From the NCBI GenBank assembly GCA_048887225.1, contig JBHLJY010000016.1, positions 1-49,964 of the forward strand: a DNA stretch of 49,964 nt, written 5' to 3'. Positions 28,231-45,289 of the stretch are shown piece by piece (position 1 is the stretch's first letter; the number at the start of each line of letters is the position of its first letter). The notes under the pieces are model-generated. The model worked only from the letters and a program-made list of their open reading frames with translations. It did not search any database and had not been told where the DNA came from. Position numbers and translations under genes: made by a program. The stretch comes from Candidatus Hodarchaeota archaeon. Its GTDB lineage: Archaea > Asgardarchaeota > Lokiarchaeia > Sigyniarchaeales > SOKP01.

Positions 28231-28317
28231 ATTATCGAGTTGGATCATTTAATTTGGAGGGATTATCGATTGAGATCATTTGACCTGTAAAAATTATCGA
28301 GCATGATCATTTAATTT
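28231..28317. repeat. Three phased direct repeats (31-bp period) of ATTATCGA-N4-GATCATTT, candidate operator array
   Basis: Copies start at 28231, 28262 and 28293, in the divergent intergenic region upstream of hdrA. Confidence 0.8.
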
Positions 28318-28601: not shown

Positions 28602-30572
28602 ATGGAAAAAAATCACACGCAACGGTTTGAAACTAAAAATAACGATAAATTAAAAATAGGATACTATGCTTGCCATTGAGGAATAAACATTAGAGGAAAA
28701 GTTGATTGCGATCAATTAGTAAAATTTGCTGAAAGCCTTGATGATGTTGTTATTGCTAAAACCAATGCTTTTCTATGAACCGAGGCAGCTCAAAATGAAA
28801 TTATTGAGGATATCAAAGAAAAAAATTTAAATAGAATTGTTGCTTCGGCTTGAACACCACGTACACATGAGCCAATATACAGAGAATCAATAGCAAAAAC
28901 TGATTTAAGTCCTTATTATTTTCAAATGGTTAATGTAAGGGAACATTGTAGTTGGGTTACAGAAAGCAACGAAGATGCTTTAGAAAAAGCAAAAATCTTG
29001 GTTAAAAGTGGTATTGAAAGAGCTAAACGCTTAGAAGTTATTCCTATAAGAACGGTTCCAATAACTAAAGCGACTTTGGTAGTTGGAGGAGGAATAGCTG
29101 GCATGAATGCTGCTCTTGACCTTGCAAATCAAGGAATTAAAGTTTACTTAGTAGAGCAAAAAACGACAGTTGGAGGAAGAATGGCTCAATTAGATAGAAC
29201 CTTCCCAACCGACGATTGTGCAATTTGAATTTGTGGTCCAAAAATGTTAGAGGTAAGCCGAAACGAAAACATTGAAATCTTAAGCTATAGCGAAGTAAAG
29301 AAAGTTGAAGGCTATGTTGGGAATTATAATGTAACAGTTGAAAAAAAACCTCGATATATTACAGATGATTGTAATGGTTGCGGAGCTTGTACAGAAGTGT
29401 GTCCAACATATACCGCAAATTATTTCGATGAATATTTAGGGGCACGAAAGGCAATTGATATATCATTTGGCCAAGCAGTACCATTTTTGTACGATATCGA
29501 CCGAAGTACTTGTGTAGAGTGTTTTTCATGTGTTGATGCATGTGAGTTAGATGCTATTGATTTCAGTCAAGAGCCAAAAGAAGTTAATTTTGAGGTTGGA
29601 ACAATTATTATAGCAACTGGTTGGGACATATATGAACCTTTTGGAGAATATGGATATGGTGAATATGAGAACGTAGTTACACAAGCTCAATTAGAGAGAA
29701 TGCTTGCTCCGAATGGACCATTAGGTGGACACGTAAGGAGAATCTCAGATAATAAGAAACTAAAAGAAATTTTATTTATTCAGTGTGTAGGAAGTCGAGA
29801 CACTGAAAGAACGTATTGTAGTGGCGTTTGCTGTATGTTGGCTCTTAAAAATGCGAAATTACTTAAAGAGGAATACCCGGACGCAAATATAACAATTTGC
29901 TATATAGACATTAGAATAAACGAAAAAGGATTTGAAGAGTATTATCAACGTGCTAAAGATTCTGATATTCGATTGATTCGTGGAAAGGTTGGTGAAATTT
30001 TTGAAGATCCTGAGACTAAAAATGTTAATATTCGAGTTTATTCATCTTTAACTGATGAGATTATTAAAATTGACGCTGATTTAATAGTCTTATCTACCGC
30101 AGCGCTACCTTCGAAAGGAACTGAACAAATTGCTAAAATATTGAATTTAGATGTTGATAGAAATGGCTTTCTCACGGAATCTCACTTTGGTTTAATGCCA
30201 CAGGAAACAAAATCAAAAGGTATTTTTATAGCGGGTTTCGCTCAAGGACCAAAAAATATTTCATATTCCGTATCTCAAGCCAGAGCGGCAGCTAGTAAAG
30301 TGGCTGAATTAACTGCTCCTGGAGAAGCAGATCTTGAACTTATCATCGCTGAAGTTGACAAGGATTTTTGCATATCATGCAGAAGATGCGAAAGAGAATG
30401 CCCTAAAGAAGCAATAAAAATTGTTGATGAAGAGGGAGCTGTAGTAGATGAAATTAACTGCGATGGATGCGGAATATGCGCAAGTTGTTGTCCTACAGAA
30501 GCAATAGACATTCGATATTTTCGCGATGACCAATTATATGCTGAAATTTCAGGTATTTTGGAAGGAGGTTAA
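28602..30572 (+). CDS. hdrA: Heterodisulfide reductase subunit A, selenoprotein with 4 Sec (UGA)
   Basis: One continuous frame with TGA at 28677, 28776, 28851 and 29226 (ACHUGINI, FLUT, SAUTPRTHE, TDDCAIUICGPKM). Each aligns to Cys in the paralog at 35058. SD GAGGTG at 28581; alternative GTG start at 28590. Confidence 0.93.
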
Positions 30573-30576
30573 ATAG

Positions 30577-31038
30577 ATGAATTATAAATATAAAATTGTT
30601 ATGTTTGCATGCTTAAAGTGAGGTTATGGTGCTGCAGATTTAGCTGGCGTTTCTCGTATGAAATACACACCTTCAGTAAAAATCATCAAACTAAGGTGTA
30701 CTGGTAGAATTGATACAAAACACATCTTATACACCATCAAATCTGGAGCTGATGGTGTAATGGTTGTTGGATGACGCCCAAATGAGTGTCAATTTAAAAA
30801 TGGTAATTTTACAGCTCAAAAGCATGTGGATTTTGCAAATAGAATATTAGAATCTCGAGGTTTTGGCAGTCAAAGGGTCAACATGTATTGGCTAAGTAGT
30901 GCTGAATCTGAGAAATTAGTTAGAAGTGTTGAAGATGCTTATGAGAAAATTCGAAGAGCTGGTCCTAATCCAATTAATACTATAGATATTAAAACTAAGA
31001 GAAAAGTTAAAGAAAGCTTAACTACTCCCGTTGAATGA
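30577..31038 (+). CDS. mvhD: MvhD/VhuD [2Fe-2S] subunit, selenoprotein with 2 Sec
   Basis: ATG at 30577 after GGAGG. TGA at 30619 (ACLKUGYGAADLAG) and 30772 (VVGURPNEC) correspond to CNWCSYAGADLAG and SGCHIGDC of the Cys paralog at 38158. Confidence 0.93.
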
Positions 31039-31069
31039 GTCTTGTAAGTAAATCTTAGTTGCAAGATGA
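31035..31069 (+). promoter_or_regulatory. Eukaryote-like SECIS element
   Basis: AUGA (31035-38), stem GUCUUGUAA/UUGCAAGAU (9 bp), loop GUAAAUCUUAG containing AAA, then GA (31068-69). Directly 3' of two UGA-containing genes. Confidence 0.85.
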
Positions 31070-31140
31070 CAAGCCGTGCGATGGAGGGGGTTTTAAAACG
31101 AATATAATAAAAATTTAATATTGTAAAAATCGAAGGAAAT

Positions 31141-32643
31141 ATGGTTCAAATTTCAAAGGATTATAATTTTGATGGTATAACTCCAAAAGATCTGTTAGAG
31201 GCTACTTCATTAGCTACGGAAAATTTCCAAGTCAGAGCATTTTTAGAAGCTAAAGATGATATTATCAGACATGAAAAATTTAGCGAAAAAGAGTTTTATG
31301 ACATTTTGGATGCAATGATCGATGCTGAAACAGAACGTAAAATGATATTGGAAGAATTAATAGGTCAGGAACCATTATTTTTAAGAGAAATTATAAATAT
31401 AATTAAAAAATTTCCACCTGAAAACGTTATTAGAGATATAATTTACCTAAAAGAACAAGGTTACGTTGAAGAACTCGTTGAGATTAAAACTAAAAAAGTA
31501 ATTAAAAAGATTAAAGGCGAGGAAAAAGAAGTTGAAGAAAAGGAATATTTCTATAGATATCAAGTAAAAGACCAAAGTGATGACTTCAAGGAGAATTTTT
31601 TTGAACCTGTTTCGCTTGTTTTTGATAATGGTGTTTGTTGTAACTGTGGATGGTGTTCCTCAATATGTCCTTTAGATGCTATTACAGTTACAGCAGATTC
31701 TTTAGAAATTGACGATAATATATGTATTAAATGTGGGTTATGTTTTTCTGTTTGCCCGAGATCTTTTTCGATTGAACAAGCTTATAAGGCAATTAAAAAT
31801 TTAGATAAATCTCTTAAATTTTCTGAGAAAATTTTACATTATAAAAATACATATTCGGGCACTACAACTAACGAAGAAATTAAAAAAGTTCGACAAGACG
31901 GAGGAATAGTTACATCTCTACTAGAATATTTATTAAAGAATAAATTAGTTGATGCTATTATAGCAGTACAACATTCCAAGGATTTATGGAAACCAGAACC
32001 GGTAATTGTAGAGGATGTAAAAGATTTATACTCCACGAGTGGAACAAAATATGCTAATTCCCCTTCATTAGTGATTATTGATAAAGCAAAAAAGTATGAT
32101 AGTATAGCAATTGTAGGTGTTCCATGCATGATGAAGGCTATTGAGAAAGGTTCATTATTTCCAAGTGGGTTACCATTTTTTAAAAACATCAAATATAAAA
32201 TTGGACTTTTTTGCATGGAATCTTTTTCTTATGATAATATTATTAATTTGGTTAAAGACAAATTTAACAAAGACATTAATGATTTAATTAAAATGAATAT
32301 TGATAAGGGTAAATTTATAATAACTTTGAAAAGTGGAGAAGAATTGAATGTCCCTCTATCTGAAATTCAATCGTACGCTCGCGATACATGTCATTATTGT
32401 GAAGATTTAACCTCTGATTATGCTGACATATCAGTTGGTTCAATTGGTTCACAAGCTGGTTGGTCGTCCGTGATTACAAGGACAAAAAAAGGGGAAGAGA
32501 TTTACAAAGGAGCAATTAAGGATGATTTAATTGAATCAAAGAGCTTAAAAGATGTTAAACCGGGGCAATTTTTAGTAGAAAAGATTGGCGGGATTAAAAG
32601 AAATAAATGTAAACCATTTGAATTAAAAAAGAAATTAATCTAA
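31141..32643 (+). CDS. FrhB-family F420-binding subunit with N-terminal helical/wHTH-like domain and ferredoxin
   Basis: 2x CxxCxxCxxxCP, RQDGGIVT, SGTKY, VGVPC, IGLFCME, CHYCED, ADISVGSIG. Confidence 0.9.
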   Translation: MVQISKDYNFDGITPKDLLEATSLATENFQVRAFLEAKDDIIRHEKFSEKEFYDILDAMIDAETERKMILEELIGQEPLFLREIINIIKKFPPENVIRDIIYLKEQGYVEELVEIKTKKVIKKIKGEEKEVEEKEYFYRYQVKDQSDDFKENFFEPVSLVFDNGVCCNCGWCSSICPLDAITVTADSLEIDDNICIKCGLCFSVCPRSFSIEQAYKAIKNLDKSLKFSEKILHYKNTYSGTTTNEEIKKVRQDGGIVTSLLEYLLKNKLVDAIIAVQHSKDLWKPEPVIVEDVKDLYSTSGTKYANSPSLVIIDKAKKYDSIAIVGVPCMMKAIEKGSLFPSGLPFFKNIKYKIGLFCMESFSYDNIINLVKDKFNKDINDLIKMNIDKGKFIITLKSGEELNVPLSEIQSYARDTCHYCEDLTSDYADISVGSIGSQAGWSSVITRTKKGEEIYKGAIKDDLIESKSLKDVKPGQFLVEKIGGIKRNKCKPFELKKKLI

Positions 32644-32657
32644 GCTGAATTAATATT

Positions 32658-33770
32658 ATGACTCCAAAAAAATTCCAAGATTTAATTGATGAGGTTCATA
32701 ATAAAGGAATTTGTCAGGAATGTGGTGGATGCGTAAGTTTCTGTAGTTCAGCCGAATATGATGTGATCAAATTTGTAGATGGATATTCGTATCCAGTATT
32801 CATTCAAAAAGATAAATGTCTTGAGTGTGGAATTTGCTATTGTATTTGTCCGCAAACTCATATTTTAGATGAGTCTTTAAATCAAACATATAAATTTTCA
32901 GATTATTCTTCTATGCCTCTTGGCTTTTTTGAGGAAATTTGTTCTTGCCAAGCTACAGATAAAGAATTTCTAAAATATGGTACAGATGGAGGTGTAGTAA
33001 ATTCAATTATAAATTATTTGTTAGAAAAAAAAATTGTTGACGGAGCAATAGTATCTAAAGTTGAGGGGCCATTTTCCAGAGAAGCTATGTTTGCTGATAA
33101 AAAAAATGAGTTACTTAAGGCCTCAGGTACTAAATTGGAGATATCTTCACATTTAGACGAAATTCAGAAATTCTGTACTTATACTCATTCAATTCCGAAA
33201 TTAAATCATTATAAATTCAAAAAACTAGTTGTTGTAGGTACTCCATGTCAGCTTTATACAATCAGATGTATGCAAAATTTGGGAGTCACACCTTCACAAA
33301 ATATTGAAATTTGTCTTGGGTTGTTTTGTTATGAGAATTTTCAATTTGATAAAATTCAAGTGAAGAAATTTGAAAAAGATTTTGCTATCGAATTCGAAAA
33401 TATCGAAAAGATAAATATCAGAGAAGATTTAATCTTAAAATTGAGAGATGATGGTTCTGGAGAAAGAATAGTTCACATTCCATTTAATCACTTAACTGAT
33501 TATATACGTCCTGCTTGTAAAGCTTGCAATGACTTTACCAATATCTATGCAGATATTTCCTTTGGAGGTCTTGGTTCACAAGAGAAATATACTACTGTAA
33601 TCCCACGAACTGAAAAAGGAAATGAAATTCTAAAAAAAGCAAAAAGTGATGGAATAATTCGTTGTTTGGATTTAAATGAGACAAGTAAAAATAATATAGA
33701 AAAACTAGTATCTCAATATTCTCAAATGAAAATAAATCGAAAAAAAAATTTCATGAATGAATTAAAGTAG
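32658..33770 (+). CDS. FrhB-family F420-binding subunit
   Basis: CQECGGC, TDGGVV, VGTPCQ, LGLFCYENF, CKACND, ADISFGGLG. Confidence 0.9.
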   Translation: MTPKKFQDLIDEVHNKGICQECGGCVSFCSSAEYDVIKFVDGYSYPVFIQKDKCLECGICYCICPQTHILDESLNQTYKFSDYSSMPLGFFEEICSCQATDKEFLKYGTDGGVVNSIINYLLEKKIVDGAIVSKVEGPFSREAMFADKKNELLKASGTKLEISSHLDEIQKFCTYTHSIPKLNHYKFKKLVVVGTPCQLYTIRCMQNLGVTPSQNIEICLGLFCYENFQFDKIQVKKFEKDFAIEFENIEKINIREDLILKLRDDGSGERIVHIPFNHLTDYIRPACKACNDFTNIYADISFGGLGSQEKYTTVIPRTEKGNEILKKAKSDGIIRCLDLNETSKNNIEKLVSQYSQMKINRKKNFMNELK

Positions 33771-33774
33771 CGAA

Positions 33775-35058
33775 GTGAAAATTACGACAGAAATTAAAAG
33801 GAACTCTAAATTAGAAGAAAAAACCGTTGATGATATTGAATTTTATTTAAACAAGAGTTACCATCCTACTTTAAGAAATTTGTTAAAAAGATGTTATCAG
33901 TGTGGTCGATGTAGTGGTGTTTGCCAATTATCAAAAGTCCAAAAGTTTACACCTAGTAGAATTATTCAAATGGTATTAGAAGGCTTTGAAGATAAAATTA
34001 TAGAAAGTGGAGTATTATGGGATTGTTTGACCTGCAACACATGCCTTCAACATTGTCCAGAAAATATTAATTTTGCGGATATTGTGAGAAATGCAAAATA
34101 TAGGATGAGAAATTCAGCTAATCAAAATCCTGATGAATATATTGCTCATAAAGGTATTTATACTACGATATCCGAGATAATGAGTCAATCTAATATCAAT
34201 CCAGAAAGAAATCTTGATTGGATCCCAAAAGAATGTAAAATTTCGAAAAAAGGAAATATTTTATATTATGTGGGATGTTTACCCTTTTTTAATTACGAAT
34301 TTGAGGATTTAACTAACATTGCAACTAGTACGTTAAAAATAATATGTCAAGTTGAAAAAGAACCAATAGTAGTTTTAAAAGAAGAGAATTGTTGCGGACA
34401 TGACCTATATTGGGGTCAGGGAAAACTTAAGACGTTCATAAAGTTAGCAAAAAAAAATATAGATATGTTCAAAGACGCTGGAATCTCTAAAATTATAACT
34501 GCATGTGCTGAGTGTTATCGAACATTTAAAGTGGATTATCCAGATATATTTGAGGATTTTAGTGAAAAGTTCGAGGTTCAGCATATTATAGAATATGTAT
34601 ATGAAAAATGGAAGCAAAATAAAATCGATTTTATAACTCCAAAAGAAAGTGATGAAAGAATTACCTTCACTTATCATGATCCTTGTAGACTGAGCAGATT
34701 TTTACCTAAGGATAACAAAATAATGGAAAAAGTCAGAGAAATCTTTAAAGAATTTAGAGAATTAGGTTATGATTTTAATGAAATGGAACATAATAAAGAA
34801 AATTCATTATGTTGCGGCGTTAATTCTTGGATGAATTGTAATGAAAAATCAAAAGCACTACGATATAAACGCATGTTAGAAGCTAAAGCTGCTGGTAATA
34901 TCATGGTAACATCTTGTCCAAAATGTAATATACATTTGAGTTGTATTCAAAACGATTTTGAAGATCTTTCTTCAATAAAGATTTTAGATTTCTCTGAATT
35001 TTTAATTGATCATGTAGAATTAAAGTCATCAGATAAAATTGAGGAGGTTGAGAAATAA
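33775..35058 (+). CDS. HdrD-like (HdrC-type ferredoxin + CCG domains) Fe-S oxidoreductase
   Basis: CYQCGRCSGVC, CLTCNTCLQHCP, YVGC, CCG, TACAEC, YHDPC, CCG, TSCPKC. Confidence 0.88.
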   Translation: MKITTEIKRNSKLEEKTVDDIEFYLNKSYHPTLRNLLKRCYQCGRCSGVCQLSKVQKFTPSRIIQMVLEGFEDKIIESGVLWDCLTCNTCLQHCPENINFADIVRNAKYRMRNSANQNPDEYIAHKGIYTTISEIMSQSNINPERNLDWIPKECKISKKGNILYYVGCLPFFNYEFEDLTNIATSTLKIICQVEKEPIVVLKEENCCGHDLYWGQGKLKTFIKLAKKNIDMFKDAGISKIITACAECYRTFKVDYPDIFEDFSEKFEVQHIIEYVYEKWKQNKIDFITPKESDERITFTYHDPCRLSRFLPKDNKIMEKVREIFKEFRELGYDFNEMEHNKENSLCCGVNSWMNCNEKSKALRYKRMLEAKAAGNIMVTSCPKCNIHLSCIQNDFEDLSSIKILDFSEFLIDHVELKSSDKIEEVEK

Positions 35059-38157: not shown

Positions 38158-38595
38158 ATGCCAAAAGCGAAAACGAAAAAACTAAAGAAAGAATTTAACC
38201 CAGAAATTTTAGTTTTTTGTTGTAATTGGTGTTCTTATGCTGGAGCCGATTTAGCGGGAGTATCTCGATTTCAATATCCTCCTAATATGAGAATTGTTCG
38301 TGTAATGTGTTCTGGGAGAGTCGATCCCTCATTTATTTTGAAAGCGCTTAAAGATGGAGCAGATGGTGTTCTCATTAGTGGATGCCATATAGGTGATTGC
38401 CATTATATTTCTGGAAATGAATATGCTAAAGAAAGATTTGAGCGATTACATAAAATTATTATTAAACAATTAGGAATTGATGAAAAGCGCGTAAGACTTG
38501 AATGGGTAAGTGCTTCTGAAGGCAAACGATTTGCTGATCTAATTACAGAATTCACAAATGATATAAAAGAATTAGGGCCTTTAAGAGCCATTTAA
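38158..38595 (+). CDS. mvhD: MvhD [2Fe-2S] subunit, Cys form
   Basis: CCNWCSYAGADLAG, MCSGRVD, GCHIGDCHY, WVSASEG. Confidence 0.95.
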   Translation: MPKAKTKKLKKEFNPEILVFCCNWCSYAGADLAGVSRFQYPPNMRIVRVMCSGRVDPSFILKALKDGADGVLISGCHIGDCHYISGNEYAKERFERLHKIIIKQLGIDEKRVRLEWVSASEGKRFADLITEFTNDIKELGPLRAI

Positions 38596-44167: not shown

Positions 44168-45289
44168 TTACCCATTTTTTTTAAAAAATGGAATAATTTC
44201 ATCAGAAATTATCTGTGATACATCCCAATAGGTAAAAGGAGCATTTTTACTCGAAGCACTGTTCCAAATCTCGAAAATAAAGTATTGTGCCCCTGCATCA
44301 ATGTAATTTTGAATTTTTTTAATGATCTCTTCTTTAGTTCCTATCAAGGTATTTTCACGTATCATTTTATCTGGAATCTGGTCATTAATTGTAGATAATT
44401 TATTAATATCAAATTTTCCAACATCTTCCCGGTCAATTTGAAGTAAGCTCATCTCATCGCAGTTATAACCTGTTGCTTCACAATATAATTCGTCAAATTC
44501 GTCTTTCCAAAATCCAAGTTTCTTAATTAAAGAAGGCTGGAACACCCAAGTCATTTTAAGAGCATTAATCTGTTCACTTATTCTCTTTTCGTCATTGTTC
44601 AAATATATGCGGTGGAATACAGCAAAAGTGAATTTATCTATCTCACGACCTTCTTTTTTGATAACTTCAGCAATTTCATTTCGACCTTCCTTAAATACAT
44701 CAGTAATAACACCCAAGGGCATCCAACCATCTGCTATTTCAGCGGTCATTTCCCGAGTTTTTGGACTATTTGCCGCAACCCATACGGGTATTTCTGAAAT
44801 CGGTTTCGGAAGTAATACAGCCTTTTTCGTTTGGTAATACTTACCATTAAACGTTACTCTCTTACCTTTTTTCCAAAATAATTTCATTAATTGGATAGAT
44901 TCCCTCATCTTTCCAAGAGCATGATCGTATGGGATATTGTATGCCTTTAAATTCATCCCTTCACCAGCTCCTATTCCTAAAATAAAATTGCCCCCATTCA
45001 TATGATTAATCGTCGTAGCCATTTGGCCTAAAACAGCAGGGTGATATCTGTGTGGATCAGTTACAGCAGATCCGAAGGTTTTCCCTTTAGTTAATTCTAT
45101 AAATGAGCCGAACATAGGCCATAAGGTTAGAAAATCATCGATTGTACCTCCTGGAATACCACTCAAATGATCAGGCAGCCAGATTGAATCCCAATTTTCC
45201 CGATTAGCAGCTATAATTTTTTTTCTAACAAATTCATAAGAATTGGAATAAAACAATTGAGTTCCAAATTTAATTTCATTATTTAGCAT
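44168..45289 (-). CDS. LLM-class (luciferase-like) oxidoreductase, probably F420-dependent
   Basis: WLPDH, VTDPHRYHPAVLGQ, LGIGAGEGMN, ADGW. Confidence 0.85.
   Translation of the reverse strand: MLNNEIKFGTQLFYSNSYEFVRKKIIAANRENWDSIWLPDHLSGIPGGTIDDFLTLWPMFGSFIELTKGKTFGSAVTDPHRYHPAVLGQMATTINHMNGGNFILGIGAGEGMNLKAYNIPYDHALGKMRESIQLMKLFWKKGKRVTFNGKYYQTKKAVLLPKPISEIPVWVAANSPKTREMTAEIADGWMPLGVITDVFKEGRNEIAEVIKKEGREIDKFTFAVFHRIYLNNDEKRISEQINALKMTWVFQPSLIKKLGFWKDEFDELYCEATGYNCDEMSLLQIDREDVGKFDINKLSTINDQIPDKMIRENTLIGTKEEIIKKIQNYIDAGAQYFIFEIWNSASSKNAPFTYWDVSQIISDEIIPFFKKNG

Follow-up and report, generated by a model that had tools for sequence, protein, structure and literature searches.

Evidence for a two-selenocysteine vhuD gene coupled to a selenocysteine-containing hdrA and followed by a single Loki-type SECIS element in an Asgard archaeon

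The window analysed here, a contig of 49,964 nucleotides from an Asgard archaeal genome, contains a region between positions 30577 and 31038 for which a table 11 listing of open reading frames (ORFs) gives just a 70-aa ORF that starts at GTG (30826-31038), as an initial annotation of this DNA had remarked. A full-length FlpD/MvhD-family frame is also present at 30577-31038, and it requires reading through both internal UGAs. The question raised by this locus is whether the short fragment is all that it encodes or whether, as that annotation proposed, it encodes an MvhD/VhuD protein with two selenocysteines (Sec, U) that is directly coupled to a Sec-containing HdrA encoded immediately upstream. 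The answer matters for annotation as the standard code shrinks vhuD to a 70-aa fragment, and correct vhuD calls are needed to reconstruct the energy metabolism of Asgard archaea, to which Hdr-type electron bifurcation modules are central. The features of the gene are as follows.

30577..31038, forward strand: vhuD/mvhD (FlpD family), 153 residues plus stop, with two Sec codons
30564..30568, forward strand: GGAGG Shine-Dalgarno-like motif within the hdrA 3' end, 8 nt before the vhuD ATG
30619..30621, forward strand: Sec15, a UGA in the motif C-L-K-U; TGA in 52/52 sequences
30772..30774, forward strand: Sec66, a UGA in the motif G-U-R-P-N-E-C; TGA in 52/52 sequences
30826..31038, forward strand: the 70-aa GTG ORF, which is the C-terminal part of vhuD and no separate gene

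The layout that had been claimed for this gene is borne out by the sequence. The hdrA stop codon TAA (30570-30572) is followed by four bases (30573-30576) and then by the vhuD ATG at 30577, the GGAGG motif is located inside the 3' end of hdrA, and translation with TGA read as U places the two UGAs at residues 15 and 66. The frame ends at a terminal TGA at 31036-31038.

The product obtained when both TGAs are read matches the Pfam family FlpD (PF02662, described by Pfam as "methyl-viologen-reducing hydrogenase, delta subunit") with an E-value of 1e-42 and 145.4 bits against a cut-off of 22.3, with residues 7-128 covering profile positions 1-122 of 123. Its top match among solved structures is chain K of 9sfi (E 1.5e-36), deposited as F420-non-reducing hydrogenase subunit delta, which we take to be the Methanococcus maripaludis VhuD of PMC13518236. 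This chain has X, a non-standard residue, at precisely the positions opposite U15 and U66, so that alignment to Methanococcus VhuD puts both Sec residues on its two X positions. Both of these positions are Cys in 5odc_D and 9sw2_D, which are chains of Cys-type MvhD. Alignment to the Cys residues of these two chains and of a paralog in the window assigns the five conserved FlpD Cys positions (C-x-x-C, C-[ST]-G and G-C-x-x-x-C) to C12, U15, C41, U66 and C71. The paralog is located as follows.

38158..38595, forward strand: Cys-type MvhD paralog, 34% identical to VhuD, with Cys at both Sec positions

In this paralog the residues opposite the two UGAs are the Cys of NWC and of GCH, in agreement with the earlier claim that the UGAs replace Cys residues of the paralog. 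Genes of both types are found repeatedly in this genome (3.27 Mb in 49 contigs, 98% complete, with the window being contig C16). There are at least seven Cys-type MvhD genes, on contigs C16, C30, C12 and C5, and four two-TGA vhuD paralogs in all, each of which is then followed by a Loki-type SECIS element (lokiSECIS). The three two-TGA paralogs that lie outside of the window are listed here.

C1:307488-307871, reverse strand: two-TGA vhuD paralog followed by a lokiSECIS
C1:229485-229865, reverse strand: two-TGA vhuD paralog followed by a lokiSECIS
C8:59804-60187, reverse strand: two-TGA vhuD paralog followed by a lokiSECIS

A scan of species-representative genomes yielded 52 related loci, 51 of which were compared with the window codon by codon. 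Where records name a taxon, the relatives are mostly labelled Promethearchaeota or Promethearchaeia, with a few labelled Hermod-, Thor- or Odinarchaeota. The closest relative (JBHLQY010000015.1; 98% protein identity and matching gene order) is labelled Candidatus Thorarchaeota, which is probably an inconsistency in record labelling as the other named relatives are mostly Promethearchaeota (Lokiarchaeia). Alignment of these Asgard homologs indicates that both vhuD codons are TGA in the window and in all 51 relatives, thus in 52 of 52 sequences. The same set is almost saturated at synonymous sites (pS ~0.67), and retention of both TGAs against this background indicates that they are not there by chance. 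For residues 1-83, which precede the 70-aa ORF, comparisons against the window give a median pS of 0.67, a median pN of 0.11 and a pN/pS of 0.17, while residues 84-130 give a pN/pS of 0.18. Because these two ratios are so close, the whole vhuD frame is under equal purifying selection.

The upstream partner gene also contains in-frame UGAs, which number four.

28602..30572, forward strand: hdrA with four in-frame UGAs; Pfam FAD and 4Fe-4S domains; stop codon TAA
28677-28679, forward strand: hdrA UGA codon, translated with TGA=U, context CHU-G
28776-28778, forward strand: hdrA UGA codon, translated with TGA=U, context FLU
28851-28853, forward strand: hdrA UGA codon, translated with TGA=U, context AU-TPR
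29226-29228, forward strand: hdrA UGA codon, translated with TGA=U, context CAIU-ICG

Three to four of these positions recur among relatives. The hdrA stop codon is TAA or TAG in 53/53 sequences, and the gap between hdrA and vhuD measures 4-6 nt in 46 of the 53. Within the Cys-rich N-terminal domain of HdrA (28602-29000), UGA occupies three of five conserved Cys positions; two of these UGAs, which take the place of the first motif's second Cys and of the last motif's first Cys, stand in motifs that look analogous to the Sec motifs of vhuD. If this domain binds a four-ligand cluster, then at least two of the ligands would be Sec. Upstream of hdrA, a 430-nt AT-rich spacer that separates it from a divergent HEAT-repeat gene contains three direct repeats of ~25 nt at a spacing of ~31 bp (window positions 28231-28317), which are possible binding sites of a regulator upstream of the selenoprotein operon.

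A signal for decoding these UGAs is found at the very end of vhuD, where a pattern search, covariation and a covariance model identify the following Loki-type SECIS element.

31024..31091, forward strand: Loki-type SECIS, whole element
31024-31028 with 31087-31091, forward strand: lower helix
31035-31038, forward strand: AUGA, the UGA part of which is the vhuD stop codon
31039-31047 with 31059-31067, forward strand: 9-bp upper stem, 9/9 pairs
31048-31058, forward strand: 11-nt loop, GUAAAUCUUAG
31068-31069, forward strand: GA
31074-31077 with 31081-31084, forward strand: mini-hairpin of 4 bp

The arrangement of AUGA, a 9-bp stem, an 11-nt loop (12 nt in one case) and GA or AA is present after vhuD in 51/51 relatives with enough downstream sequence. 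The upper stem recovered by RNAalifold shows compensatory changes, one of its pairs being UA in 34 sequences versus CG in 12. When the three-helix model was tested on a MAFFT alignment that had not been fitted to any structure, 89.5% of the model's cells were paired versus 40-57% in controls in which the 3' partners were slid by 1-3 columns, and 63 cells had changed on both sides versus 13-18 in the slid controls. None of 500 shuffles matched either the percentage paired or the covariation score. A covariance model of the element has a single match in the window (31010-31105, 89 bits; the window's own sequence is included in the model), and a search for a second SECIS in the window, including the hdrA region, gave a best other match with an E-value of only 0.47. 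Since the window holds one SECIS, this element would therefore serve the UGAs located 261, 414, 1807, 2182, 2257 and 2358 nt upstream of it. The window has no matches to Rfam families at gathering thresholds, lokiSECIS included, and the z-score of -1.3 for a single-sequence fold of the vhuD 3' region is uninformative on its own.

The mini-hairpin, a GC-rich helix of 4-5 bp with a loop of 3-7 nt, follows the 3' GA-C and precedes the lower helix. It covaries in the alignment that was not fitted to structure (U-G, U-A and C-G at one pair), and of the 11 SECIS candidates in this genome, 10 show it when folded under constraint. The lokiSECIS thus appears to be a three-way junction formed by way of the mini-hairpin. 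The sections of Mariotti 2016 (PMC4989117) and Huang 2024 (PMC11227280) drawn on here describe a stem, a loop, an internal loop and a lower stem without a mini-hairpin, and the conserved mini-hairpin seems to go beyond the lokiSECIS descriptions in those sections. Genome-wide there are some ten to eleven lokiSECIS-like elements, one of which follows a selD that contains a TGA (C2:205431).

The remaining components needed to make and insert Sec were sought across the genome, and several of them are located on contig C4.

C4:38949-39836, reverse strand: SelB/EFSec, 248.6 bits, above the curated cut-off
C4:44554-44706, forward strand: tRNA-Sec, between selB and SepSecS, with UCA anticodon and 9/4 fold
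C4 ~44569-44598, forward strand: 30-nt insert in the D arm of tRNA-Sec
C4 44659-44688, forward strand: 30-nt insert in the T loop of tRNA-Sec
C4:44777-46066, forward strand: SepSecS, 490.3 bits, above the cut-off

The SepSecS model is specific, with M. jannaschii being the sole match among 14 control genomes. SelD scores 180.2 bits and has one in-frame TGA, and a PSTK-like gene has a full-length match (E 2e-45, 155.7 bits) that scores under the NCBIfam curated cut-off. The tRNA-Sec was located by BLAST with the tRNA-Sec of relatives from the same order, and removal of both inserts in silico allows ARAGORN to call a 93-nt tRNA-SeC(tca) whose acceptor stem has 9 bp and whose T stem has 4 bp. ARAGORN did not find this tRNA in the unmodified genome, either with or without introns, nor was it found with two regular-expression and GC-island heuristics; ARAGORN found no tRNA in the window. 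In this genome, all hits of the Rfam model RF01852 were ordinary tRNAs that scored below the cut-off, and in eight genomes of the same genus the model gave no tRNA-Sec over the cut-off, perhaps from the same insert-related cause. In the sections of Mariotti 2016 (PMC4989117) used here, the tRNA-Sec has a T-loop intron only, and the second intron in the D arm seems to go beyond what those sections describe. Consequently, tRNA-Sec, a PSTK-like gene, SepSecS, EFSec/SelB and SelD are all present and this genome has the Sec trait.

These observations can now be weighed against other ways of explaining the two internal UGAs. That vhuD is a pseudogene or an assembly error, with a product limited to the 70-aa ORF at 30826-31038 or with no product whatsoever, is what table 11 would suggest as it leaves that ORF alone. 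The 70-aa piece, however, has none of the five Cys/Sec positions of the FlpD fold. Both TGAs are moreover shared by 52 of 52 sequences, which originate from many studies, and selection before position 30826 equals in strength that after it. We rejected a pseudogene on account of the shared TGAs and the purifying selection before 30826, and consider an artefact of this kind to be very unlikely. Decoding of the UGAs as a residue other than Sec would yield either Trp, by a code-4-like reassignment that follows public gene calls, or Cys. Database homologs do have W at both positions (~275 relatives in public protein collections are stored in this form) and some gene callers chose code 4; many of the stored relatives also have a recurrent C-terminal E-W-[IVF]-L or longer tail. 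However, no fewer than five other genes of the window end in TGA, which lies inside no other long ORF. Since TGA is a normal stop elsewhere in the window, there is no genome-wide reassignment, and that candidate was rejected. The UGA positions furthermore align to Cys or to a structural X only, never to Trp, and a SECIS along with the full Sec machinery is present. We therefore hold a non-Sec residue to be very unlikely, and the stored W residues are best read as a gene-calling artefact that arises when a TGA=Trp code is applied to short contigs. The E-W-[IVF]-L tail results from translation of the 5' arm of the SECIS.

This same tail bears on the third UGA of the gene, at 31036-31038, which could be decoded as Sec as well to give a 156-aa product that ends in U-V-L with a UAA stop codon at 31045-31047. 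Such a product finds some encouragement in the 40 of 51 relatives that have this UGA in frame, usually followed by two codons and UAA, and in the recurrence of the tail in public protein calls. The UGA and the UAA are, however, both structural parts of the SECIS, the former belonging to the AUGA core and the latter ending the 5' arm of the stem. Eleven relatives have the UGA out of frame after an earlier vhuD TAA or TAG, and their RNA motif is equally conserved. Because the motif is kept both in and out of frame, its conservation belongs to the RNA and not to a U-x-L peptide. Additionally, six of the in-frame relatives do not have the UAA, so that read-through adds from 3 to 27 residues past the two-codon tail, and Mariotti 2016 (PMC4989117) argued that a UGA has to lie at a minimum distance from the SECIS. 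A third Sec is thus improbable, and UGA 31036-31038 is best read as the vhuD stop codon.

With the two internal UGAs as Sec codons and the third as a stop codon, the initial proposal of a two-Sec MvhD/VhuD translationally coupled to a Sec-containing HdrA is supported by the family match, the conservation of the UGAs and of the hdrA-vhuD arrangement in all 52 sequences, the X positions, the lokiSECIS and the Sec machinery. We are highly confident that vhuD of this Lokiarchaeal (Promethearchaeota) genome, whose product belongs to the [2Fe-2S]-binding adaptors with FlpD fold, is a genuine two-Sec gene coupled to hdrA, with six UGAs read as Sec by way of one lokiSECIS and with a FrhB-type electron input as the likely partner. 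In the mechanism that we propose, hdrA and vhuD are most likely co-transcribed and translationally coupled. The coupling is suggested because of the 4-nt gap and the Shine-Dalgarno motif inside hdrA, and we infer one transcript with hdrA, vhuD and the SECIS because of the same gap and the presence of no other SECIS in the window. The six UGAs, four in hdrA and two in vhuD, would be decoded as Sec by Sec-tRNA(Sec) and the archaeal SelB/EFSec, with the single kink-turn-type lokiSECIS that begins at the vhuD stop codon acting as the presumed decoding signal. Translation would terminate at the UGA in the AUGA core, as a ribosome positioned on this UGA would have unfolded the SECIS.

The genes that follow vhuD provide an indication of what the encoded protein may be connected to.

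31141..32643, forward strand: FrhB/FdhB-family protein (Pfam PF04432, PF04422); ortholog directly 3' of vhuD in 50/51 relatives
32658..33770, forward strand: second FrhB/FdhB-family protein (Pfam search), present in most relatives
33775..35058, forward strand: HdrB/HdrC-like protein with CCG domain and 4Fe-4S dicluster (PF02754), conserved in 45 relatives

Some 50 relatives retain the order hdrA-vhuD-frhB-(frhB)-hdrBC-like. A Pfam search of the window returned no hydrogenase genes, and the arrangement in which VhuD is a subunit encoded beside MvhA/VhuA and MvhG/VhuG does not occur in the window. Since the window has no hydrogenase gene, the Vhu/Mvh name denotes homology and not a shown association with hydrogenase. 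Genes for [NiFe] large subunits are present on other contigs (C12 and C35), one of them adjoining a Cys-type MvhD, and [NiFe]-hydrogenases encoded elsewhere in the genome could also dock on VhuD. In methanogens, VhuD/MvhD is a [2Fe-2S] adaptor that connects a hydrogenase or FdhAB with the bifurcating FAD of HdrA (PMC13518236, PMC6019823). By homology to these proteins, VhuD would dock on HdrA and pass electrons one at a time from an input module on to the bifurcating FAD. Synteny suggests that this input may be a FrhB-type module, dependent on F420 or a similar cofactor, rather than H2. A FrhB-type input is likely because there is no nearby hydrogenase and the conserved neighbouring genes encode two FrhB/FdhB-like proteins as well as an HdrBC-like CCG protein, with the FrhB/FdhB-family protein at 31141-32643 being the likely electron-input partner. 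VhuD thus most likely joins a FrhB-type input module to the multi-Sec HdrA in a putative hydrogenase-independent Hdr-like complex.

What the Sec residues may contribute to such a complex depends on how the [2Fe-2S] cluster is bound. The initial annotation suggested that the Cys residues replaced by the two Sec are both [2Fe-2S] ligands. The Sec-type VhuD lacks the first Cys of the CC doublet found in Cys-type MvhD, and has five conserved Cys/Sec positions. Because there are only five, a four-ligand cluster needs at least one Sec, and this counting argument points to U66 as probably the predicted Sec ligand. The cluster ligands of MvhD/VhuD are not named in the sections of PMC13518236, PMC6019823 and preprint 10.64898/2026.04.10.717634 on which we draw. 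The relevant section of that preprint describes a conserved Cys near the cluster of methanogenic MvhD that forms a disulfide and equals Sec19 in BamF, and it does not call this Cys a ligand. By position, this near-cluster Cys/Sec19 probably corresponds to U15. We infer from the comparisons above that Sec is inserted, along which path the electrons move and what the Sec residues do, and it is a tentative suggestion, one that we would not favour outright, that the VhuD cluster uses at least one selenolate, probably U66, with U15 redox-active beside the cluster, which would make VhuD a natural selenium-ligated Fe-S protein. If true, the Sec residues of the widespread Asgard VhuD would tune the cluster potential or aid the conversion between one-electron and two-electron transfer, with no classical catalytic nucleophile.

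For completeness, we compare this locus with systems that have been described. The Geobacter metallireducens class II benzoyl-CoA reductase contains BamF, which, according to the portions of the literature considered here, resembles VhuD in being an MvhD-homologous [2Fe-2S] adaptor beside an HdrA-like subunit, and is itself likened to VhuD by description. The HdrA-like partner of BamF is the bifurcating subunit, and Sec19 of BamF occupies the near-cluster Cys position. In contrast to VhuD, BamF as described in those portions is bacterial, over 100 aa longer and has one Sec mentioned. Cys-type MvhD, as in Methanothermococcus thermolithotrophicus (5odc_D) and the paralog at 38158-38595, shares the FlpD fold and the five Cys positions with VhuD, but has Cys at both Sec positions as well as the extra Cys of the CC doublet and needs no SECIS. 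The VhuD of M. maripaludis (9sfi_K, PMC13518236) is closer, with the same family and length and two X positions that align to Sec, and it serves as the [2Fe-2S] adaptor that connects an electron-input module with HdrA, as proposed for the window VhuD. M. maripaludis differs in that its SECIS is of the archaeal type, the partner is the Vhu [NiFeSe] hydrogenase or FdhAB and the acceptor is CoM-S-S-CoB, whereas the window VhuD has FrhB-like and HdrBC-like neighbours in a non-methanogen host.

The hdrA-vhuD pair with its shared decoding signal is already known, as it constitutes a further copy of a system that was described in 2016. In the papers drawn on here, Sec insertion in Asgard archaea is based on comparative genomics. 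Mariotti et al. 2016 (PMC4989117) reported from Lokiarchaeota a VhuD of ~150 aa with two Sec and an HdrA with up to four Sec, with VhuD always directly 3' of HdrA after a very short gap and the hdrA stop always UAA or UAG. They also described one lokiSECIS (AUGA, 9-bp stem, 11-nt loop and GA) after VhuD for up to six UGAs over ~2 kb, a SECIS that overlaps coding sequence and, ~6 kb away from EFSec, a tRNA-Sec whose T loop is interrupted by an intron. Huang et al. 2024 (PMC11227280) reported 227 Sec-utilizing Asgard genomes in which hdrA and frhD/vhuD are always adjacent and have one SECIS in common. The Lokiarchaeota pairs are like the window in having a two-Sec VhuD on the same strand after a multi-Sec HdrA, a short gap, a UAA or UAG stop in hdrA and a single SECIS after vhuD with an 11-nt A-rich loop that ends in G; likewise, in both the tRNA-Sec has a T-loop intron and is located on the strand opposite to EFSec, at a distance of ~6 kb. 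The differences are not essential. In the lineage of the window the vhuD stop codon is usually the UGA of the AUGA core, an overlap that PMC4989117 reports for VhuU.1, and the D arm of the tRNA-Sec of this genome contains a second intron of ~30 nt. As was pointed out in 2016, the locus is a two-cistron arrangement of six UGAs and one SECIS that links archaeal and eukaryotic Sec decoding.
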